From Candidatus Eiseniibacteriota bacterium (lineage in GTDB: Bacteria > Eisenbacteria > RBG-16-71-46 > CAIMUX01 > VGJL01), in assembly GCA_041946735.1 (NCBI GenBank), contig JBHGAY010000002.1, forward strand, positions 102,368 to 166,367: a DNA stretch of 64,000 nucleotides, given 5' to 3'. A program made the position numbers and the translations under genes. Of the stretch, positions 1,759 to 61,296 are shown one piece after another. Position 1 is the stretch's first letter, and every line of letters starts with the position of its first letter. The notes beneath the pieces were generated by a model. That model had not been told where the DNA came from. It worked only from the letters and a program-made list of their open reading frames with translations, and did no database searches.

Positions 1759-2691
1759 CTACCGCCCTTCGGCCCCCTCCTGGAGGATCCGGACCAGCTC
1801 CCGGTCGGTCAGGCGGCGGAAGCTCGCCGGTTTGGGCAAGCGGAAACGCCCCGGATCGGTCCCCGGGTCGGGGCCGGCGGCGGTGAGCCTCGCGTCTACG
1901 CGGAGCGAGGGGCGCATCGCCTCGATCCGCAGCGACCGGGGCAGGTCGATCCCGTTCGTGGAGCGGAAGGCGGCTCTCTCGATCCGGATCGCGACGCCGC
2001 CGTCCCGGTCCGGGATCTCGATCGTGTCGATCCGCTCCCCCTGGCCGGTCAGGACGAGGCGCGGCGCGGGGGCCCCCGCGGCCCCGTCCTCCGCCATGGC
2101 CCCGGCCCCGGGGCCCGCCCCGGCCCCGGCCCCCGCCGGGCCCCAGGCTGCGGAGAGCTTCCAGGGGTCGCCGGCCTTCTCGAGCACCGGGTCGCGAAGT
2201 TGCGCGACCAGCGGGGAGGGGCAGAGCAGCCAGAGCAGAGCGGCCGAAGCGATCGAGACGTCCTCGCCCCCCGGGCTGCCGCCCGGGCTGCCACCCGCCC
2301 GGCCGCCGGCCGACCAGTACGCCTTCTTTTGCGGCAGGCTCACGAAGGCCGAATCTCCGCGCAGGACGATCGAAGCCAGCGGCACGAAGGCGCCGAAGCG
2401 CAACTGCAGCCGGGCCTGGTCCGGCCAGGCGGCGCGGAGCGCCCCGTCCAGGCGCACCGGGCTTCCCTCCGCCGGGACGATCCGCAGGTCGAGGTTGGCG
2501 GCGAGGTCCGCCGGACAGGGGCGCGCGGCCAGGATCTCGGCGAGCCGCCGTCCCCCTTCCGCGCCCGTCTCGAGTTGCGGCAGGCGCGGCGCCCGCGCGG
2601 CGCAGCCCGCCAGGACCGCGGCCGTGGCGAAGAGGATCGCGAAGCGGATCGACGTCGACGACTTCGAGCGGATCGGCCTCCGCGACTGCAA
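1759..2691 (-). CDS. putative lipoprotein of unknown function
   Basis: A signal peptide with lipobox (IRFAILFATAAVLAGC) is embedded in the long ORF 1759..3246. The start is probably the TTG at 2691 and is uncertain. There are no recognisable catalytic motifs. Confidence 0.5.
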   Translation of the reverse strand: MQSRRPIRSKSSTSIRFAILFATAAVLAGCAARAPRLPQLETGAEGGRRLAEILAARPCPADLAANLDLRIVPAEGSPVRLDGALRAAWPDQARLQLRFGAFVPLASIVLRGDSAFVSLPQKKAYWSAGGRAGGSPGGSPGGEDVSIASAALLWLLCPSPLVAQLRDPVLEKAGDPWKLSAAWGPAGAGAGAGPGAGAMAEDGAAGAPAPRLVLTGQGERIDTIEIPDRDGGVAIRIERAAFRSTNGIDLPRSLRIEAMRPSLRVDARLTAAGPDPGTDPGRFRLPKPASFRRLTDRELVRILQEGAEGR

Positions 2692-2711
2692 GCGGATCGA
2701 CGTCGACGACT

Positions 2712-3101
2712 TCAAGCGGACGGGAACTCCGAAGGGCTGCGGCCGATCGCCACGATCGAGCACGCCTCGATCGGGTTCATCCCGAGCGACTCGATCTTGG
2801 CGATCAGCTCGGGGCTTCCGGCTCCCGGGTTCACGTAGACGTCCCGCACCCCCTTCGCCGGTGCCTGCTCGACGACCGAGAGGCCGTTCTTCGGCGGGAC
2901 GTAGAGGCTCATCCAGGCGGCGCGACCGGGGACATCGGCCACGGTGGGCGAGCAGGGAAGCCCCTCGACCTCCCGGTCGATCGGATGGACCGGGTAGACG
3001 ATCCAGCCCAGCTCCTTGTAGGCGCGGACCGCCTTGTTCGCGAAGCGGTCGCGCTTGTGCGACGCCCCGACGATGATGATGCTCCTCTCCTCCAGATCCA
3101 T
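2712..3101 (-). CDS. CoA-binding domain protein (YccU/YneT-like)
   Basis: The protein begins MDLEERSIIIVGASHKRDRFANKAVRAYKELGWIVYPVHP, with the CoA-binding-fold motif IVGAS...YPVNP-like. ATG at 3101 with a GGGAGG RBS at 3112-3107. Confidence 0.8.
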   Translation of the reverse strand: MDLEERSIIIVGASHKRDRFANKAVRAYKELGWIVYPVHPIDREVEGLPCSPTVADVPGRAAWMSLYVPPKNGLSVVEQAPAKGVRDVYVNPGAGSPELIAKIESLGMNPIEACSIVAIGRSPSEFPSA

Positions 3102-3324
3102 CGCATCCTCCCGTGCGGCCGGCCGGGCCGCCGCCCCTTGCGCGTTCGCGCCGTGCTCGCCCACACTGGCGGTTCGCGCCGTGCTCGCCCGCGCTGCCCG
3201 CACATGGGCGCCGGGCGGTCCAAGCCGCGCAGGGCGGCGTCCCCACCTCGTCCGAGCCTAGACGAGACGGGAGGGTCTGTCACCTCGGGCGGATTCCGGC
3301 GGCGAAGGAGGAGAACCGGCAACG

Positions 3325-4014
3325 ATGCGGCTGCGCGACTGGCAAGCGGCGGCGACCCTCGAGGAGCTGCAAGCGCTCCTTCTCGACGGGCCCTCTCTCT
3401 TCCCGCCGGATCGTCCCGCGCTCGACGCTCCCTTCGATGCCGTGCCGTTCTGCTTCTTCGACGTCGAGACGACGGGACTCGACCCCGAGCGCGGCGACCG
3501 GATCGTCGAGATCGCGGCTGTTCGGATCGATCCCGGCGGCCGCGAGCGGCGCCACGTCGAGATCCTCGATCCGCGCCGCGACATCCCCGACGAGGTGCGC
3601 GCGATCCATGCGATCCGCCCCGAGCAGGTGCGGTCGTGCCGGCGCTTCGCCGCGGGGCGCGACGAGATCCTCTCGCTCTTCGACGGCGCCGTGGCGGTCG
3701 GACACAACGTCGGCTTCGATCTTCGCTTCCTGAGGTGGGAGCTGCGCCGCGCCGGCGCGGATCTCCCGCCGCTGCGGGTGCTCGACACGTGGTGCCTCGC
3801 GCGCCGCTGGTGCCACTTGCGCAGCTACTCGCTCGAATCGGTCGCGCGGCATCTGGAGATCTCCCCGCGCGATCTGCACAAGGCTCTGGACGACGTCCTG
3901 ACGACGCGCGCGGTTCTCGAGCGGCTCGCGCCGCGCATCGAGCCGCCCGCCGCGCGGCTCGTCGATCTTCTGAATGCGATGCTGGCGCCGCTTCCCGAGA
4001 GCGTGAAGGAGTGA
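3325..4014 (+). CDS. DEDDh 3'-5' exonuclease, DnaQ / DNA polymerase III epsilon-like
   Basis: Exo motifs are present: I is FFDVETTGLD, II is VGHNVGFDLRFL, III is HKALDDV. An AAGGAGGAG RBS lies upstream of the ATG at 3325. Confidence 0.85.
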   Translation: MRLRDWQAAATLEELQALLLDGPSLFPPDRPALDAPFDAVPFCFFDVETTGLDPERGDRIVEIAAVRIDPGGRERRHVEILDPRRDIPDEVRAIHAIRPEQVRSCRRFAAGRDEILSLFDGAVAVGHNVGFDLRFLRWELRRAGADLPPLRVLDTWCLARRWCHLRSYSLESVARHLEISPRDLHKALDDVLTTRAVLERLAPRIEPPAARLVDLLNAMLAPLPESVKE

Positions 4015-4086
4015 CCCGGACGGGGAGGGGACGGAGTGATGGCGGTGGCGGAGTGACGGCGGTGAAGAAGTGACGAGGGGGAAGGA

Positions 4087-5241
4087 GTGACGGTGGATCC
4101 GCGGATCGGATGGACGAGCTGGGTCGAAGTGGAAGAGAAGGCGATCGTCGCGAATCTTGCGTCGTTCCGCCACCGCCTCGCGCCCGGCGCCGCGCTGATG
4201 GCGGTCGTGAAGAGCAACGGCTACGGCCACGGGATGGAAGAGGTCGCGCGGATCGCGGCGGCTCACGGAGCCGACGCGTTCGGCGTGCACACGGTCGCCG
4301 AGGCGGAGAGGCTCGGGCGGCTCGGACTCGGCAAGCCGGTCATCATCCTCGGATACACGGCGCGGGCGGAGGCGGAGCGACTCGTCGCGAGCGGCGCGGA
4401 GGCCACCGTCTACAACGTCGAGACGCTCGAGGCGCTGTCGGCGGCCGCGAGCGCGCGCGGCGCGGTCGTCCGCTGCCACGTCAAGGTCGAGACGGGCGTG
4501 CAGCGCCAGGGGATCTTCCTCGAGGATCTCGAGCCGTTCCTCGCGCGCCTCGCCTCGCTGCCGGGGCTCGCGCTCGCCGGAGTCTCCACGCACTTCGCCA
4601 ACATCGAGGACACGACCGACCACTCCTACGCGCGCCGCCAGCTCGCGATCTTCCGCGAAGCGGCTGAGCGCGTGCGTGCGCGCGCGCCCGAGGCGCTCCG
4701 TCACTGCGCCTGCTCGGCGGCGGTGCTGACGATGCGCGAGACGCTCTTCGACATGGTGCGCGTCGGGATCGGCCTCTACGGCATCTGGCCGTCGCGCGAG
4801 ACGCTGCTGTCGTGCCGGATGGCGGGAGAGGACGAGATGCCGCTGCGCCCCGCCCTGTCGTGGAAGGCGCGGCTCGCCCAGGTGAAGCTCGTGCCGGGGG
4901 GGGCGTACGTCGGGTACGGCTGCACCCACCGCACGACCCGGCCGACGCGGGTCGGCGTGATTCCGATCGGCTACGCGGACGGCTACGACCGCGGCCTTTC
5001 CGGGATCGCGCACGTGCTCGTGCGCGGCCGGCGCGCGCCGGTCCTCGGCCGCATCTGCATGAACCTCTTCATGGTCGACGTGACCGACATCGAGGGCGTC
5101 GGGCTCGAGGAGGAGGTGGTCCTGATCGGACGGCAGGACGGGGAGCAGGTGACCGCGGCCGACCTGGCCTCGCTGTGCAACACGATCGCCTACGAGATCG
5201 TGGCCCGCATCGGACCGCATCTGCCTCGGATCGTCGTGTAA
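4087..5241 (+). CDS. alr: alanine racemase
   Basis: The PLP-binding motif AVVKSNGYGHG is present and the length (~384 aa) fits. The GTG start at 4087 directly abuts the GAAGGA; the alternative GTG at 4093 has better spacing. Confidence 0.9.
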   Translation: MTVDPRIGWTSWVEVEEKAIVANLASFRHRLAPGAALMAVVKSNGYGHGMEEVARIAAAHGADAFGVHTVAEAERLGRLGLGKPVIILGYTARAEAERLVASGAEATVYNVETLEALSAAASARGAVVRCHVKVETGVQRQGIFLEDLEPFLARLASLPGLALAGVSTHFANIEDTTDHSYARRQLAIFREAAERVRARAPEALRHCACSAAVLTMRETLFDMVRVGIGLYGIWPSRETLLSCRMAGEDEMPLRPALSWKARLAQVKLVPGGAYVGYGCTHRTTRPTRVGVIPIGYADGYDRGLSGIAHVLVRGRRAPVLGRICMNLFMVDVTDIEGVGLEEEVVLIGRQDGEQVTAADLASLCNTIAYEIVARIGPHLPRIVV

Positions 5242-5286: not shown

Positions 5287-5560
5287 GTCGAATGCGGCAT
5301 CGAGCTTCCCGAACGGCGTTCGACCGGCGAGGCACGTGGCATCGACCTTCCCGCTTCGCTTTCGACCGCGGTCGGATGCAACGCCCACGTTCCCCGGCCG
5401 CGTTCGACCGGCGCCGCACGTCGCATCGACGTTTCCGGTACGCTCTCGCCCGCGGTCGGATGCGGCGCCCACGTTCCCCGGCCGCATTCGACCGCAGGAG
5501 AACGTCGAGGCGACCTTTCGGATCTGCATTTTCCGGGCAGAAAACGTCGAGGCGAGCCTT
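5287..5560. repeat. degenerate tandem repeat with an 84-bp period, about 3 copies, in the alr-downstream intergenic region
   Basis: Units at 5317-5400 and 5401-5484 are ~85% identical (cgttcgaccggcg..gcacgt.gcatcgac...gtcggatgc..cgcccacgttccccggccg). Partial copies flank them. Confidence 0.8.
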
Positions 5561-14314: not shown

Positions 14315-14316
14315 TC

Positions 14317-14400
14317 GCTCGGCCGGAGAGCTCGGCTGGAGAGCTCGGCTGGAGAGCTCGGCCGGAGCGCTCGGCCGGAGCGCTCGGCCGGAGCGCGGCG
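14317..14400. repeat. tandem 13-nt repeat (gctcggcYggagM) x6
   Basis: The sequence reads gctcggccggagag ctcggctggagag ctcggctggagag ctcggccggagcg ctcggccggagcg ctcggccggagcg. It starts immediately after the stop at 14312-14314. Confidence 0.8.
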
Positions 14401-56245: not shown

Positions 56246-57649
56246 TCACGGGTTCCGGCGCACCTCCACGAACGTCTTGTTGCGAAGCTCGGCGATGTAC
56301 GCCTCGAGCTTCTTCTGTCTCTCGTCGCGCTCCACCATCGCCCGAAGCTGGTCGCGGACCTCGTCGAACGTATAGTCGGTCTCCGCCTGCTCCCCGAGGA
56401 GCTTGAAGAGGTGGAATCCTCCCTCGACCTTGGCCGGGCGACTGATCTGGCCGACCCGCAGCGAATCGACCGCCCCCTGCGTGTCGCCGAGGAAGTTGTC
56501 GATCGGCAACCAGCCGACATCGCCGCCGGTCTGGCGCGTCGCCGGGTCGTCGGAGTACTTCCGCACCGCTTCGGCGAAATCGATCGCCCCCGAGACGATC
56601 TCCTTGCGGATCTCGTCGACGCGAGCGCGCGTGCGCGACTCGTCGCTCCGGGTCGGCGTGATCTTCACGAGGATGTGCCGCACCTGCGCCCAGGCCCCCG
56701 AGCTGTCCCGGTCCATGACCTGGATCAGGTGGTAGCCGAGGTTCGTACGGATCGGACGGCTCACTTCGCCGATCGGGAGCGTGAAGGCGCGCGACTCGAA
56801 GTTGCGATCTCCGAGATCGCCGGGACCGAAGCGGCCGAGCAGGCCTCCCTGATCGCGGCTGTTCTCGTCGTCGGAGTAGCGGCGGGCGGCTTCGTCGAAC
56901 GCGAGGCCCTTCTGGATCTCCTCGTAGATGTCCTGCGCCTTCTGGCGGTAGGTGCGCTCGATCGTGCTGTCCGGGCTGATCCGCACGAAGAGGTCGAGCA
57001 CCCGAAGGGCGCGTGGCTTCTTGCCGATGTCCCCCTTGTGCTCCTCGAACTGCTTCTGCACGTCGGCGTCGCTGACGACGATCTTCGAGAAGATCTCGCG
57101 CTGGAGGAGCTGGCGGCGCAGGTAGTCCTTGCGGGCTTCGTCGGTGTAGCGCTTGCGGAGATCCGCCTCGGTGATCCCTTCCTTCTGGAGCTGCTTGGCG
57201 AAGCCGTCGGCGCCGAGCCGCTGGCGGTCCCCCTGGATCGCCTCGTCGACCGCGCGCTGGATCGCCGCTTCGTCGACCTTGATCCCCTTCGCCGCCGCCT
57301 CCTTGTCGAGGAGCAGCTCGCTGATCATGTTGTCGAGGATCTGGCGGCGCAGCTCGTTCGCCTGGGACGTGTCGTTCGGATCGACCTGGAACTGAGGGGC
57401 GAGCATGCCGAACTGCTCTTCCACCTCGGAGCGGAGGATCGGATGATCTCCCACGACCGCCGCCACACCGTCCGCCACCTTCGCGGGCGCCCCAGCCGTC
57501 CCGGCCACACCTGCAGCGCCGGCCGCCGGCGCGCTCTGGGGCTGATTCCCCGCCTGAGCCTCGCCGTCGGACGGCAGCGACAACAGGAAACCAGCCGCCG
57601 CCAGCAAGGCGATCCCGAGGAAACTCCGGGACCTGTTCGAAATCCGCAT
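56246..57649 (-). CDS. surA: periplasmic chaperone / peptidyl-prolyl isomerase SurA-like (two parvulin domains)
   Basis: The signal peptide is MRISNRSRSFLGIALLAAAGFLLSLP. The parvulin motifs are DQGGLLGRFGPGDL and TGGDVGWLPIDNFLGD. ORF-track residues 1-102 are junk. Confidence 0.8.
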   Translation of the reverse strand: MRISNRSRSFLGIALLAAAGFLLSLPSDGEAQAGNQPQSAPAAGAAGVAGTAGAPAKVADGVAAVVGDHPILRSEVEEQFGMLAPQFQVDPNDTSQANELRRQILDNMISELLLDKEAAAKGIKVDEAAIQRAVDEAIQGDRQRLGADGFAKQLQKEGITEADLRKRYTDEARKDYLRRQLLQREIFSKIVVSDADVQKQFEEHKGDIGKKPRALRVLDLFVRISPDSTIERTYRQKAQDIYEEIQKGLAFDEAARRYSDDENSRDQGGLLGRFGPGDLGDRNFESRAFTLPIGEVSRPIRTNLGYHLIQVMDRDSSGAWAQVRHILVKITPTRSDESRTRARVDEIRKEIVSGAIDFAEAVRKYSDDPATRQTGGDVGWLPIDNFLGDTQGAVDSLRVGQISRPAKVEGGFHLFKLLGEQAETDYTFDEVRDQLRAMVERDERQKKLEAYIAELRNKTFVEVRRNP

Positions 57650-58065
57650 CCTTCCTCTCCTACCTCTCCCCATCATGGAGAAGCCCACCAGGACAGGCAT
57701 CCGCCGATCCCTCGGGCTTTTCCGTTGCGTACGATATCCCGCGCTCGCTGGCGGGGGCAAATACTCCCTGTGCGACTGTCCGGCCATGGGCGACCGCTTC
57801 TGCCGATCCATGGGCATTCCGCGCCGATCCTTGCGGACTGCGGCACCCCGATGCAGATCGCGGCCGGAGCCGCCGAGCGCCTTGCAGCGTGCACGCGGCC
57901 GTAGCCAGTCCGGCACAGGCGGACCGCAACCTACCCGCGAACTTCGTTTCTTCATGCGACTTCGGTGATCGGCCCCCGTGAACAGGGCCTGGCAGACCTC
58001 TTGCTTCCGGGATTTCGTGCCTCGATCGGTTTTTGGCTAGGGGCCCGAGAGCAGAGGAGCGAGTC

Positions 58066-58464
58066 GTGGTTTCGACCCGGATCGTCCTGATCTCCGATTC
58101 CGTCCGCTTGGCTGGGCGTCTTCGCGCAGCCCTACGTCACGAGGGATACACGACAATGGTGCATGGGTTCGCCGGACATCCGAACTTGATTCTCCTCCGC
58201 TCTTGCCCCGACCTCCTGATCCTCCATGCGAGCCGGGACGCCGCGCACCTGGAGCGCTGGCGCCAGGGAGTCGAGGCGACTCGGCGGCGGCGCTCGCTGC
58301 CGGTCCTCGGGATCGCCCCGCGCCACATGGGCGGGAGGGAGCGTTCGATTCTCGAAGGGATCGCCGATCTCGGCGTTTGCCGGAGGCCCGTGCGCAAGCG
58401 AGAGATTCTGGAGCGGATCGACCCCTGGTCCACCTCCGGGGCTCGACTGCTTCGTGCGAGTTAG
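58066..58464 (+). CDS. stand-alone receiver-like domain protein (pseudo-receiver; His replaces the phospho-Asp)
   Basis: The REC-fold pattern is RIVLISDSVRLAGRLRAALRHEGYTTMVHGF...PDLLILHASRD...LPVLGIAP. An AGAGGAG RBS lies 6 nt before the GTG at 58066. Confidence 0.5.
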   Translation: MVSTRIVLISDSVRLAGRLRAALRHEGYTTMVHGFAGHPNLILLRSCPDLLILHASRDAAHLERWRQGVEATRRRRSLPVLGIAPRHMGGRERSILEGIADLGVCRRPVRKREILERIDPWSTSGARLLRAS

Positions 58465-58623
58465 GGCTCGAGTCGGGGCACGAGTTGGGGGCTCGGAATA
58501 AGGGGGTCGAGCGGGGGCTTCGAGTAGGGGAGTAGGGCGACAAGAGTAGGAGCTCGAGCGAACTTCGTGTGCGACGAGCGAACTTCGCATAGGGATCGCG
58601 ACGGAAACGGCCGAGGACAGGGG

Positions 58624-60426
58624 ATGCACGTGGGTACGCACGCAAAAGAGGCTTCCAAGCTGCCGCCGCGCTGCCAATCGCTCCTCGAGAGCGCGGCGCG
58701 CATGACCGGCATGTGGCTCGAGGTGTGGAACGGGGGACGCGACCCGCTCGCCTCCGCCCCGGTTCCGCCGTCCTGCCGGGCGTGTGGTCGGCGTGATCTC
58801 GAACGCTTCTCGGTCTGCCGGCGCGAGCGGGCCCGGGCTGTGGTCACCGGGTGCGCCGGGAATCCGGAGGGAAGAGGATCGGTCTGCCCGCGCGGCCGGA
58901 AGATCCTCTGCGTGCCGATCGCCATGGCCGACGCCCCGTGGCTGCGGCTCGTCGCATGCGTCAACGGTCATGGCCACCGGCACGGAGAGGTCGCTTCCGC
59001 GGATGGCAACGGGCGCGGGGGCGCCGCCCACGGGAGCGGGAACGGCAACGGGAACGGCAACGGGAAGGGCAGCGGAAACGGCAACGGCAACGGCAACGGC
59101 AACGGAAGCGGAAACGGCAACGGGAAGGGCAACGGAAACGGCAACGGCCGCAGCGCGAGCGTAAACGGAAACGGCAGCGGAAACGGCAGCGGCAGAGGCG
59201 CGGACGAGTCCCGCATCCGCTTCCTCGAGGATCTGGCAGCCCTCTTCGCCGAGCACCTCTCCTTCGCCCGCTCGCTGACCCACGCGACCGGAGAGCTGAC
59301 CCACCGTCACGAGGAGCTGGACCTCCTGTATACGATCTCCGGCTCCCTGCGCCATGCCGAAGGGGTGCGCAGCCCCTTGCGCCGAATCCTCGAGCAGGCG
59401 CGCGTCGCCCTGGTGGCCGATGCCGTCGTGCTCTCGATCGACTCCAGCCGGGTGTTCGAGCAGGTGTCCGGACCGTCCCTCGGCAACGGCAAGGCGCCGG
59501 GCGGGCGGGACTGGCGGCTGCTCTCGAGCTTTCTCGCGGAGCGTTTCCGCGACGGCGCGCTCGGCTTCTTCGAAGGCGCGCCGGCCGACCTTCCCGGGAT
59601 GGATGGGCGGCTGGCCGTCGTGCAGCGACTCCTCGCCGTCCCGCTGCCCGGCAGCGCCGGCAACGACGGCTGCCTCTGCCTCGCCTACATGCAGGCGGAG
59701 CGGCGCCGCGGCTCCTCGGAAGTCCGGCTGCTGAAGCTGCTCGCCGAGAAGGTGTCGATGGCCGTCGCCAACGACCTCCTCGTCGAGGACCTGCACGACT
59801 TCCTGATGGCGACGGTGAAGAGCCTGGTCAGCGCAATCGAGGCGAAGGATCCCTACACGTCCGGCCATTCCGAGCGGGTGAACCTCCTTTCGATGCTTCT
59901 TGGCAAGACGATGGGGCTCTCGGCGGCCGATCTCGAGGTGCTCCGCTGGGCCTCGATCCTGCACGATGTCGGCAAGATCGGGATGCCCGAGGAGATCCTG
60001 AAGAAGCCGGGGATCCTGACGCCCGAGGAGTACGAGGTGATGAAGGAGCACCCGGACCGCGGCTACAAGGTGCTCGCGCCGATCCGGCAGCTGGAGGCGG
60101 CGAGCCTCGGCGTCCGCCATCACCACGAGATGTTCGACGGACGCGGGTATCCGCTCGGGCTGAAGGGAGAGGCGATCCCGCTCCCGGCTCGGATCATTTC
60201 CGTCGCCGACACGTACGACGCGCTGACGAGCACCCGCTCCTATCGCAAGCGGCGCGGGCCGGACCAGGCGTTCGCGATCATCCAGGCGGTGCGCGGCACG
60301 CAGCTCGATCCGCGAGTGGTCGACACCCTCGCCGAGCTGATGCCGTTCATCCGCGAGCACGAGGTCATGCTTCAGCCCGAGGGGCTGGAGGGCGCGCCGC
60401 TCACACTGCCGTCGCAGGCGGCCTAG
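58624..60426 (+). CDS. HD-GYP c-di-GMP phosphodiesterase with a Cys-rich N-terminal region, a Gly/Asn repeat linker and a GAF-like middle domain
   Basis: The HD-GYP core is HDVGKIGMPEEILKKPGILTPEEYEVMKEHPDRGYKVL...HHHEMFDGRGYPLGL. The N-terminal cysteines are CQSLL..CRACG..C..C. GAGGA RBS; ATG at 58624. Confidence 0.85.
   Translation: MHVGTHAKEASKLPPRCQSLLESAARMTGMWLEVWNGGRDPLASAPVPPSCRACGRRDLERFSVCRRERARAVVTGCAGNPEGRGSVCPRGRKILCVPIAMADAPWLRLVACVNGHGHRHGEVASADGNGRGGAAHGSGNGNGNGNGKGSGNGNGNGNGNGSGNGNGKGNGNGNGRSASVNGNGSGNGSGRGADESRIRFLEDLAALFAEHLSFARSLTHATGELTHRHEELDLLYTISGSLRHAEGVRSPLRRILEQARVALVADAVVLSIDSSRVFEQVSGPSLGNGKAPGGRDWRLLSSFLAERFRDGALGFFEGAPADLPGMDGRLAVVQRLLAVPLPGSAGNDGCLCLAYMQAERRRGSSEVRLLKLLAEKVSMAVANDLLVEDLHDFLMATVKSLVSAIEAKDPYTSGHSERVNLLSMLLGKTMGLSAADLEVLRWASILHDVGKIGMPEEILKKPGILTPEEYEVMKEHPDRGYKVLAPIRQLEAASLGVRHHHEMFDGRGYPLGLKGEAIPLPARIISVADTYDALTSTRSYRKRRGPDQAFAIIQAVRGTQLDPRVVDTLAELMPFIREHEVMLQPEGLEGAPLTLPSQAA
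59033..59203 (+). repeat. hexanucleotide microsatellite (AACGGC)n with Lys/Ser variants, inside the HD-GYP gene
   Basis: About 28 tandem hexamers (aacggc/aacggg/agcgga/aagggc) encode GSGNGNGNGNGKGSGNGNGNGNGNGSGNGNGKGNGNGNG... Confidence 0.85.
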
Positions 60427-60589
60427 CGACCAGCGGGTCGTTGCTGCAGGCGCGACAGTTTTGGGGCTGAGAGGCGCGCATTCCTTTGAAGCCGTCCCCG
60501 ACCTCCGGGGCGGCTTCGCCGGGGGCCGTCCCGCGCGCGGTACGCGAAGAGCGGACCCGATGCGGGGCGGACCCTGCTACCATCTCGGC

Positions 60590-60865
60590 ATGACCGATTC
60601 CATCGAGGAGATCCGGGTCGTCTTCCGCCTCTGGGGACCGATGCGTCTCGCGGCGAGGCAGGAGACCATCGCCGTCCGGCTTCCTGCGAAGAGCGGCGCG
60701 GCAAGACTTTCCGCGGCCCTCGACATCCTCTATCGGAGCTTCCCGGCCCTGGCGCCCCATCGCGCGAGCGCGCGGGTCGCGATCGGAAACGACTACGTGC
60801 GGGACGACCGTCCGCTCCAGGGCGGCGAGGAGATCTCCTTGATCCCGCCGGTGCAGGGCGGATGA
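60590..60865 (+). CDS. moaD: MoaD/ThiS-family sulfur carrier protein
   Basis: A 91-aa protein ending ...EEISLIPPVQGG (C-terminal Gly-Gly). The stop overlaps the moaE ATG (ATGA). Confidence 0.8.
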   Translation: MTDSIEEIRVVFRLWGPMRLAARQETIAVRLPAKSGAARLSAALDILYRSFPALAPHRASARVAIGNDYVRDDRPLQGGEEISLIPPVQGG

Positions 60866-61296
60866 TCGGTGGCGTTCCGGAATCGGCCGCTCCCGCGACC
60901 GTCCGTGTGGTCATCACGGCCGAGCCACTCGCCATCCCCGCGGAGGAGCGGTCACGTGAAGGGCGCGACGGCGCGGTCCTCGAGTTCTACGGCGTCGTGC
61001 GAGACACGGAGGACGGCCGCGCCATCGAGGCGATCGATTACGAATGCCATCTCTCGATGGCGCAGGCGCAGCTCGAGCGGATCGCGCGTGAAACGGCCGC
61101 CCGCCACTCGCTCTCGGAGCTGATCGTGCTGCACCGGATCGGCGTCGTCCCGGCGGGCGAGCCGAGCTTGTACGTGCGCACCCTCGCGCCGCATCGCGGG
61201 CCGGCCCTGGCGGCGGTCGCGGAGCTGATCGAAGACTTGAAGCGCGACGTCCCGATCTGGAAGCACCCGATCGAGCGGCGCGGCGCGGAGGCCTGA
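60862..61296 (+). CDS. moaE: molybdopterin synthase catalytic subunit
   Basis: 144 aa. The MoaE pattern is ...LEFYGVVRD...IVLHRIGVVPAGEPSLYV...DVPIWKHP. Confidence 0.85.
   Translation: MIGGVPESAAPATVRVVITAEPLAIPAEERSREGRDGAVLEFYGVVRDTEDGRAIEAIDYECHLSMAQAQLERIARETAARHSLSELIVLHRIGVVPAGEPSLYVRTLAPHRGPALAAVAELIEDLKRDVPIWKHPIERRGAEA

Follow-up and report, generated by a model that had tools for sequence, protein, structure and literature searches.

HD-GYP proteins are, to our knowledge, the less studied class of phosphodiesterases acting on cyclic diguanosine monophosphate (c-di-GMP), and the way in which N-terminal domains or partner proteins control them is largely unknown. The present analysis concerns a pair of adjacent genes, encoding a receiver-like protein (here termed open reading frame A, ORF A) and an HD-GYP enzyme, within a 64,000-nucleotide (nt) stretch of the metagenome-assembled genome of an uncultured Candidatus Eiseniibacteriota bacterium (assembly GCA_041946735.1, contig JBHGAY010000002.1, positions 102,368 to 166,367), hereafter the window, whose proteins have exact matches in a Candidatus Eisenbacteria genome of this kind. 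Among the described systems closest to this pair, RpfG and 'RpfX' likewise bring together a receiver (REC, CheY-like) and an HD-GYP domain, with a PAS-like or GAF domain between input and catalysis, and the part of the HD-GYP survey drawn on here lists the corresponding REC-HD-GYP and REC-PAS/GAF-HD-GYP families as fusions (Galperin and Chou, bioRxiv 10.1101/2021.11.05.467447). In the window, by contrast, the receiver is a separate gene product that lacks the Asp, Thr and Lys residues, and no histidine kinase gene is adjacent; canonical relatives of the window pair are likewise split into two genes.

Other described proteins resemble parts of the pair. PmGH from Persephonella marina presents a GAF domain followed by HD-GYP, with all the listed metal and substrate motifs present, but the window enzyme adds a putative PocR-type domain with conserved Cys residues and a 68-residue Asn-Gly linker, and it has a receiver-like partner gene of its own. 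V-cGAP3 from Vibrio cholerae, on the other hand, has tandem HD-GYP modules and other N-terminal domains, whereas the window enzyme carries the RxY[K/R] motif. Pseudo-receivers such as the D2 adaptor domain of PleD (residues 155-273) and FrzS, the latter also matched here, have a CheY-like fold without a phosphorylatable Asp; ORF A differs from them in being a stand-alone protein of ~130 amino acids (aa), in belonging to a family of its own without a Pfam match and in having an HD-GYP enzyme as its conserved genomic partner. Finally, PocR (PF10114; Salmonella PocR, Eubacterium limosum MtaR) resembles the N-terminus of the enzyme in its PAS-like fold, and orthologues of the window enzyme score above the threshold of its model. 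Only positions 5-100 of the 162 in that model are covered, however, and the output is GAF-HD-GYP instead of an AraC-type DNA-binding domain. In the same part of the survey, PocR and HD-GYP occur together once, in a single archaeal multi-domain ORF (bioRxiv 10.1101/2021.11.05.467447).

Because about half of the closest relatives of the enzyme have a separate canonical receiver gene next to a homologous, Cys-less enzyme, we consider it probable that the window pair derives from a split receiver/HD-GYP module, no longer depends on phosphorylation and has kept its pseudo-receiver as the partner of the enzyme. This reading builds on the reality of the receiver gene, on the folds, on the motifs lost and retained, on the conserved pairing and on the relation to the canonical pairs.

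The receiver-like gene and its conserved pairing

The first gene of the pair and its putative ribosome-binding site are as follows.

58054..58059, + strand: Shine-Dalgarno-like GAGGAG, 6 nt before the GTG of ORF A (direct reading of the sequence)
58066..58464, + strand: ORF A, stand-alone aspartate-less (pseudo-)receiver gene, 132 aa, GTG start

Neither the acceptor Asp nor the full acidic pair, the Thr/Ser at the end of strand β4 or the Lys at the end of strand β5 that are expected of a phosphorylatable receiver is found in ORF A. The motif DLLILHAS starts at residue 49, so that His54 (codon 58225-58227) falls on the last position of strand β3, where the phospho-acceptor would be, while Ala occupies the Thr position, Arg the Lys position and S10-D11 the place of the acidic pair after β1, of which one acidic residue is thus kept. 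The receiver-like nature of the ORF and the His at its acceptor position, both read from the sequence in the original prediction, are corroborated by profile searches, by an AlphaFold2 (AF2) model and by Foldseek. Built from the family alignment, the model reaches a mean predicted local distance difference test score (pLDDT) of 91.2 and displays the (βα)5 topology. When compared with the PDB by Foldseek, it yields 261 matches at E<=1e-3, and all 50 of the 50 matches listed are receiver domains or receiver-containing constructs. A profile of 17 family members matches 168 receiver chains of the PDB at E<=1, over positions 5-126, with PleD as the best match (3.9e-12, matched in the non-phosphorylated D2 as well as in its other receiver domain) and YycF, PhoP, PhoB, KdpE and CheY among the others. 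The receiver assignment is solid because the family profile, the model and the structural search agree, and both fold and detectable homology place ORF A in the receiver superfamily.

The family itself is not easily detected. ORF A alone has no match in Pfam (including Response_reg) or NCBIfam, and a word-indexed protein search returned only ORF A itself. Exhaustive HMMER searches, on the other hand, recovered the family, with 21 representative sequences matched at E<=0.001; some 17 of these are family members of 120-166 aa with 27-43% identity, and two weak matches are bona fide multi-receiver proteins. Two members of the family also show sub-threshold Response_reg matches that span the full domain. 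Judged from these searches, the ORF A family is a small set of aspartate-less receivers of ~130 aa that escape the current models of Pfam and NCBIfam. In the one closely related pair of orthologues available (L004 and L005), the ratio of nonsynonymous to synonymous substitution rates (dN/dS) of ORF A is 0.093, and both the adjacent enzyme gene (0.208) and surA (0.145) lie above it. Its codon-position GC content is coding-like but weaker than that of its neighbors, with a third-position value (GC3) of 0.77 versus 0.87-0.94. ORF A is a real gene with a receiver fold, and it is under purifying selection.

The loss of the acceptor residue extends to most of the family. Across the 17 members, the acceptor column holds E (six), H, Q, D, Y and N (two each) and V (one), and because this column varies His54 is not a conserved feature but one of many replacements. 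For the same reason, a role of His54 as an alternative phosphorylation site was ruled out, the position not being conserved even inside the family. The Thr position is mostly A, V or L, the Lys position is mostly R and, of the N-terminal acidic pair, usually only one residue survives. Conservation is found instead in P48-D49, ahead of β3; in E63-x-W65-R66 and R73/R75/R76, on or after α3; in E92-R93 (α4); in A100-D101-L102-G103, at the α4/β5 junction; in P108; and in W121 (α5).

The coupling of this gene to the HD-GYP enzyme, which the original prediction had put forward, is mirrored in related genomes. In L004, L005, L006, L008, L010 and L011, that is, in six of the six related loci with enough downstream sequence, the enzyme orthologue is directly preceded by an ORF A family gene for a protein of ~130 aa, with gaps of -4 to 35 nt; L012 also harbors a family member, and its contig ends 84 nt into the next gene. 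In a Cys-bearing sister clade of Eisenbacteria (L001-L003), synteny and enzyme are kept and a 358-nt spacer (L001:5643-6000) contains no pseudo-receiver gene. As far as gene order can tell, a genuine and conserved pairing links a non-phosphorylatable receiver to an HD-GYP enzyme with a sensor-like N-terminus.

To place this pairing in a wider context, the enzyme alignment was scanned against one genome per GTDB species, the 80 closest loci were kept and all their ORFs were searched with the pseudo-receiver profile. A separate REC ORF is found immediately upstream of the enzyme ORF in 41 of the 80 loci, with a stop/start overlap of -4 or -1 nt in 28 of the 41 according to a nearest-start heuristic that favors small gaps. 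Two of these loci are of the Eisenbacteria type, and the other 39 belong to Desulfobacterota, Planctomycetota and other phyla. An acceptor Asp is aligned in each of the 39 non-Eisenbacteria-type receivers, and nearly all of them also keep the DD pair, T and K; the five that were sampled all pass the Pfam Response_reg threshold, with 64-78 bits. The enzymes downstream of these canonical receivers have the architecture X-GAF-HD-GYP, in which the ~100-aa N-terminus is homologous to that of the window enzyme (hhalign Prob 94.6, E 6.7e-8) and lacks the Cys residues. Such canonical split pairs occur within L021-L090 (e.g. L042:2264-4194, L029:2276-4158 and L068:2087-4116); in the L042 pair, from Desulforhopalus, the receiver gene spans 2264-2671 and the enzyme gene 2671-4194. 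In two loci from Desulfobacterota (L035:1902-2867 and L045:2253-2705), the PocR-like N-terminal domain is found in a different ORF from GAF-HD-GYP, which could reflect a faulty assembly, a frameshift or a real additional split of the enzyme.

The state of the receiver was also cross-tabulated with the presence of the CxxC..C motif in the enzyme N-terminus, using the 53 locus rows that contain this N-terminal domain, several of which are duplicates.

CxxC..C motif present, degenerate receiver: 11 rows
CxxC..C motif present, no receiver: 4 rows
CxxC..C motif present, canonical receiver: 0 rows
CxxC..C motif absent, canonical receiver: 28 rows
CxxC..C motif absent, no receiver: 8 rows
CxxC..C motif absent, degenerate receiver: 2 rows

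This pattern suggests, but does not prove, a rewiring of the input. Our literature search returned no description of a split receiver and HD-GYP arrangement, and nothing relevant on a pseudo-receiver with HD-GYP or on Eisenbacteria with c-di-GMP; both the split module and the stand-alone pseudo-receiver family appear to be undescribed.

The HD-GYP enzyme and its putative sensor region

The second gene encodes a multi-domain protein with the following features.

58613-58617, + strand: GAGGA Shine-Dalgarno of the enzyme, six bases ahead of the ATG
58624..60426, + strand: PocR-like / NG-linker / GAF / HD-GYP gene, 600 aa from the ATG
58666..58962, + strand: predicted N-terminal PAS-like sensor domain of the PocR type, aa ~15-113
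58996..59199, + strand: Gly/Asn/Ser low-complexity linker, aa ~125-192 (composition)
59037-59194, + strand: in-frame (GGCAAC)n array encoding the linker (Tandem Repeats Finder, TRF; 25.8 copies, 74% matches)
59200..59778, + strand: signalling helix and putative GAF domain, aa ~193-385 (collinear orthologues)
59824..60318, + strand: HD-GYP catalytic domain, aa 401-565 (HD_5, 2.5e-41)

The start annotated by NCBI is a GTG at 58630, which yields a protein of 598 aa. Its catalytic domain is unambiguous, with 141.7 bits against the Pfam HD_5 model (cut-off 27.2), and the full set of metal-ligand and substrate motifs that defines HD-GYP c-di-GMP phosphodiesterases can be read from the sequence: SGHSERV at 413 (H415), HD at 447-448, KPG at 461-463, EHPDRG at 475 (H476), HHHE at 499-502, GYP at 508-510, ADTYD at 528 (D529) and RSYR at 538-541. 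Guanine binding has been attributed to KPG and RxY[K/R], with RxxQ or RxxN variants leading to specificity for cyclic GMP-AMP (cGAMP), in the portion of the survey consulted for motifs (bioRxiv 10.1101/2021.11.05.467447). Since KPG and an RxY[K/R]-type RSYR are present, c-di-GMP is the most likely predicted substrate of the enzyme.

The N-terminus had been described as a region with at least eight cysteines in CxxC-like spacing, possibly a metal or redox sensor. The count stands, with eight Cys among residues 1-112 (17, 51, 54, 65, 77, 88, 96 and 112), but the spacing does not, as C51-C54 is the only true CxxC, and four of the eight residues are conserved: C51, C54 and C65 are near-invariant in the orthologue alignment and C88 is usually present, while the remaining four are not conserved. 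A search with the full-length enzyme retrieves hundreds of relatives, and the N-termini of the orthologues align; the Cys-bearing N-terminus is conserved in orthologues, contrary to the lack of conservation that would have spoken against the original prediction, with the consensus LLE..A.LL...LE(I/V)W.....P......C..C....P..F..C...R.........W.CP.GL.L...PI......G.L.AV. The Pfam PocR model matches 17 of 35 orthologue N-termini (best E 1.5e-8), and four orthologues score above its gathering score of 23.9 bits. By orthology, the Cys-rich region is probably a short PocR-type, PAS-like sensor domain instead of a CxxC-rich metal module. Searches with the window sequence itself are less informative: the N-terminal 122 aa have no Pfam or NCBIfam match; a word-indexed search with the N-terminal 124 aa returned nothing, not even its parent protein (P0002), which is a limitation of the tool; Foldseek against the PDB gave only weak roadblock, PAS and Cache matches for the N-terminal model; and a profile search of the PDB found no PocR structure. 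A weak profile alignment (E 0.074) sets C51, C65 and C88 opposite the Cys of the 'FC', 'TRC' and 'YRC' motifs in what we take to be the N-terminal sequence of Salmonella PocR, validated only by its 159-bit match to PF10114. This lead, which depends on the identity of that sequence, suggests that the conserved Cys set is a trait of the PocR family and not a new module.

The Gly/Asn linker of some 60 residues and the GAF-like domain of the original prediction were both recovered. By composition, the linker spans 68 residues (30 Gly, 18 Asn and 8 Ser). The window GAF region scores below threshold (GAF_2, E 0.16, residues 252-381, 12.6 bits versus a gathering score of 28.6), but collinear orthologues exceed the Pfam GAF thresholds (GAF_2 34.9 bits in P0003; GAF 34.2 bits in P0024; 35.4 bits for the L025 protein), and hence the GAF domain of the window enzyme is assigned by orthology. 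Linkers of orthologues are hypervariable, with lengths between roughly 10 and some 140 residues, and NG repeats appear in none of those retrieved.

A proposed two-gene module and its alternatives

Taken together, the two genes would form a cytoplasmic signalling module in which the first encodes a receiver-fold protein that has lost its phosphorylation chemistry and the second a one-component enzyme, composed of a putative PocR-type PAS-like sensor (C-x2-C...C...C), a variable linker, a GAF domain and an HD-GYP domain predicted to hydrolyze c-di-GMP. The ancestral form would be a widespread bicistron in which the gene for a canonical CheY-like receiver overlaps the start codon of a homologous, Cys-less PocR-like/GAF/HD-GYP gene, a 'split' counterpart to the fused REC-PAS/GAF-HD-GYP response regulators, and its receiver would bind the enzyme in trans and relay its phosphorylation state. 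In the Eisenbacteria lineage, the receiver would have been kept as a phosphorylation-independent subunit, while the signal may enter through the Cys-bearing PocR-like domain, the GAF domain or both. This evolutionary context, with its canonical split relatives, makes the gating of the enzyme by a non-phosphorylatable partner more plausible than it would otherwise be, and a physical gating of this sort is plausible on sequence grounds; the reading presumes a physical interaction, a direction of regulation, a ligand or metal and a substrate. The α4-β5-α5 face is the usual output and dimerization surface of canonical receivers. By analogy, the contact of the pseudo-receiver would most likely involve this face (ADLG, Trp121) together with the Arg-rich α3 helix. 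A more ambitious version, which we advance only tentatively and consider less probable than its denial, would see here an undescribed widespread unit, in which the translation of a PocR-like/GAF/HD-GYP phosphodiesterase is coupled to that of a stand-alone CheY-like receiver and whose input was rewired in Eisenbacteria, where the abandonment of the phospho-relay, together with every active-site residue of the receiver, would have coincided with a Cys3-4 (metal or redox) site and the dead receiver would have become an obligate regulatory subunit under strong purifying selection.

Several observations weigh against the derivation of the pair from a split module and the regulatory role assigned to the pseudo-receiver. 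The enzyme can evidently work without a partner, since the sister clade L001-L003 has no REC gene, and tight translational coupling has been lost in the window, as the genes are 159 nt apart and do not overlap. The link between the Cys motif and receiver degeneracy derives from few independent events, essentially one Eisenbacteria clade, and has two exceptions (L011 and L017) in which a degenerate receiver accompanies an enzyme without the motif. Moreover, the N-terminus and the GAF region of the window enzyme fall below Pfam thresholds, so that both are assigned via orthology, and the closest solved HD-GYP structure belongs to a cGAMP-specific enzyme.

Some of these points are also what an adaptor role would predict, with a pseudo-receiver that acts as an independent adaptor or effector and is co-transcribed with the enzyme only for joint expression. 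It could be, for instance, a CheY-like reader that binds cyclic dinucleotides from the pool controlled by the enzyme through the Trp/Arg-rich α3 (E63-x-W65-R66 ... R73, R75, R76), positions that are conserved across the family. Binding of c-di-GMP through Arg and Trp is established for the receiver-like Cle proteins and for VpsT. The existence of an enzyme without a partner in the P0028 clade and the distance between the window genes would fit this role as well. However, no known c-di-GMP-binding motif was identified in ORF A, the stop/start overlaps seen in relatives and in canonical pairs are typical of subunits made in a fixed ratio, and in the fused REC-PAS/GAF-HD-GYP proteins, as presented in the part of the survey cited above, the receiver acts on the enzyme in cis (bioRxiv 10.1101/2021.11.05.467447). 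We therefore regard an independent adaptor as unlikely, if still worth keeping in mind. We see next to no chance that ORF A is spurious, or that it is the functionless, decaying pseudogene of a former receiver. Such a view could draw on the missing Pfam and NCBIfam matches, on the loss of all catalytic residues, on a GC3 below that of the neighbors and on the loss of the gene in the sister clade, but family members keep a length of 128-137 aa at the low identities given above, the dN/dS ratio is under that of the enzyme and SurA genes, the AF2 model is confident and the Shine-Dalgarno is strong.

Two further alternatives concern the substrate of the enzyme and the DNA between the two genes, in which the following features were found.

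58465..58623, + strand: intergenic spacer, 159 nt, an insertion relative to every related locus examined
58464..58537, + strand: degenerate G-rich tandem repeat with a period of 12-13 nt, about 5 copies of a unit close to GGGGCTCGAGTAG (TRF, repeat search)
58555..58587, + strand: CGAGCGAACTTCG, exact 13-mer, two copies at 58555 and 58575 (20 nt start to start)

That the enzyme mainly hydrolyzes 3'3'-cGAMP, or another cyclic dinucleotide, rather than c-di-GMP seems to us quite improbable. In its favor, the best sequence match in the PDB is V-cGAP3 (5z7c, 6e-41), narrowly ahead of PmGH (4mcw, 6.5e-38), and hydrolysis of cGAMP is known for HD-GYP enzymes (PMC4423081). Against it, KPG and GYP are intact and the specificity motif RSYR fits the c-di-GMP type RxY[K/R], whereas the cGAMP-shifted enzymes treated in the cited part of the survey carry RxxQ or RxxN (bioRxiv 10.1101/2021.11.05.467447). 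We give still less credit to the notion that the enzyme gene is controlled by a structured leader or a riboswitch formed by the G-rich repeats, for example a riboswitch that senses c-di-GMP. The repeats announced in the original prediction do exist, with 50% G and seven G-tracts of 3-5 G within the 74 nt of 58464-58537 on the sense strand. When G-quadruplexes (G4) are enabled, ViennaRNA places one in this tract, which gains 3.9 kcal/mol (-60.6 versus -56.7 kcal/mol), and independent samples of this species share one and the same spacer sequence. Nevertheless, a permissive Rfam scan of 57500..58800 detected no c-di-GMP riboswitch (GEMM-I or GEMM-II) or other family in the leader, its sole match being a chance microRNA on the minus strand (15.9 bits versus a gathering score of 50), and the 186-nt leader folds with the same energy as shuffled sequence (z = 0.02). 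With neither an Rfam match nor excess RNA folding, the structured leader that had been proposed is unsupported. The spacer, furthermore, is missing from all relatives, and the G4 is a minor possibility because the window, with its GC content of 69%, contains about 20 G4-like stretches; the tract at 58464-58537 is the longest G4-prone one, and a G4 is predicted there only with G4 folding switched on.

Under the preferred reading, namely a phosphorylation-independent derivative of a split module, the relatives of the enzyme offer a natural comparison among enzymes accompanied by a working receiver, as in many Desulfobacterota and Planctomycetota, by a dead one, as in one Eisenbacteria clade, or by none, as in another such clade. 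The control of HD-GYP by a receiver in trans, and the role of an aspartate-less receiver after the loss of phosphorylation, are therefore directly testable. The locus adds a ~130-aa receiver family and a predicted PocR-GAF-HD-GYP architecture that is not described in the part of the HD-GYP survey used here. Its significance is moderate, since every component is of a known kind.

Repeat arrays and genomic surroundings

The distance between the two genes had been given as about 160 nt; their adjacency holds and the exact length is 159 nt. In relatives, the gaps between pseudo-receiver and enzyme are 35, 11, 11, 9, 12, -4 and 49 nt, and because they span only -4 to 49 nt the spacer of the window is an insertion. 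The junction of relatives aligns as a compact stop / GGAGG / start, and we infer that the extra ~150 nt arose by tandem expansion of stop/Shine-Dalgarno-like units (GAGT-TAG-GGG...) that resemble the terminal junction of ORF A. The two copies of CGAGCGAACTTCG are the only exact ones in the 64 kb, with a further copy at 57934 that has two mismatches. A dispersed element similar to repetitive extragenic palindromes (REP) or miniature inverted-repeat transposable elements (MITE) was ruled out, the 13-mer being unique to this site and the G-rich unit having no close copies elsewhere in the window. The spacer is 100% identical in two other assemblies of the same species (L013 and L014), and for this reason it is not an assembly artefact. 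By comparison with the sequences retrieved, both the spacer and the Asn-Gly linker are tandem-repeat expansions absent from every relative, and they do not belong to what is conserved in the module.

Both arrays interrupt the short-read assemblies of this species. Contig L015 ends at 58499, within the G-rich tract, and contigs L013 and L014 end within the (GGCAAC)n array. The last ~25 bases of JAUCQG010001472.1 (L014:2050-2074) read CTGTCTCTTATACACATCTGACGC, which we take to be the Nextera transposase adapter; it would presumably be adapter contamination joined inside the GGCAAC repeat of a contig from a metagenome-assembled genome. About 18 Asn-Gly dipeptides are encoded by the (GGCAAC)n array; as no other dipeptide is as prone to deamidation, the linker could age chemically.

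Gene order is shared by the window and its relatives. The genes holB, an M23 peptidase gene, ftsX, ftsE, an S4-domain gene and surA lie on one strand, and the pseudo-receiver gene, the HD-GYP gene, moaD(ThiS) and moaE lie on the opposite one, the same neighborhood being found in each orthologue contig examined. The region that separates surA from the divergently oriented pseudo-receiver gene (57650-58065) is unusually long, with 416 nt in the window and 289-468 nt in relatives; it has no Rfam match and no excess folding, and consensus scans of 57800..60700 gave no promoters or terminators. The mechanically derived surA ORF (569 aa, to 57955) over-extends the called gene of 467 aa. Downstream of the enzyme, on its strand, moaD(ThiS)-like and moaE genes occupy 60461-61296, as they do in most relatives examined. 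The listed ORF at 60461..60865 (134 aa) is probably over-extended as well, since an ATG at 60590 would give a protein of ~91 aa ending in GG, and the moaD(ThiS)-like products of relatives have 81-85 aa.

Short tandem repeats are common in this genome, which seems prone to repeats in view of the 50 TRF rows returned for the 64-kb window. Examples away from the pair are an 84-bp unit at 5316-5494 (2.1 copies, 87% matches) and a 13-bp unit, CGCTCGGCCGGAG, at 14316-14396 (6.2 copies, 94% matches).

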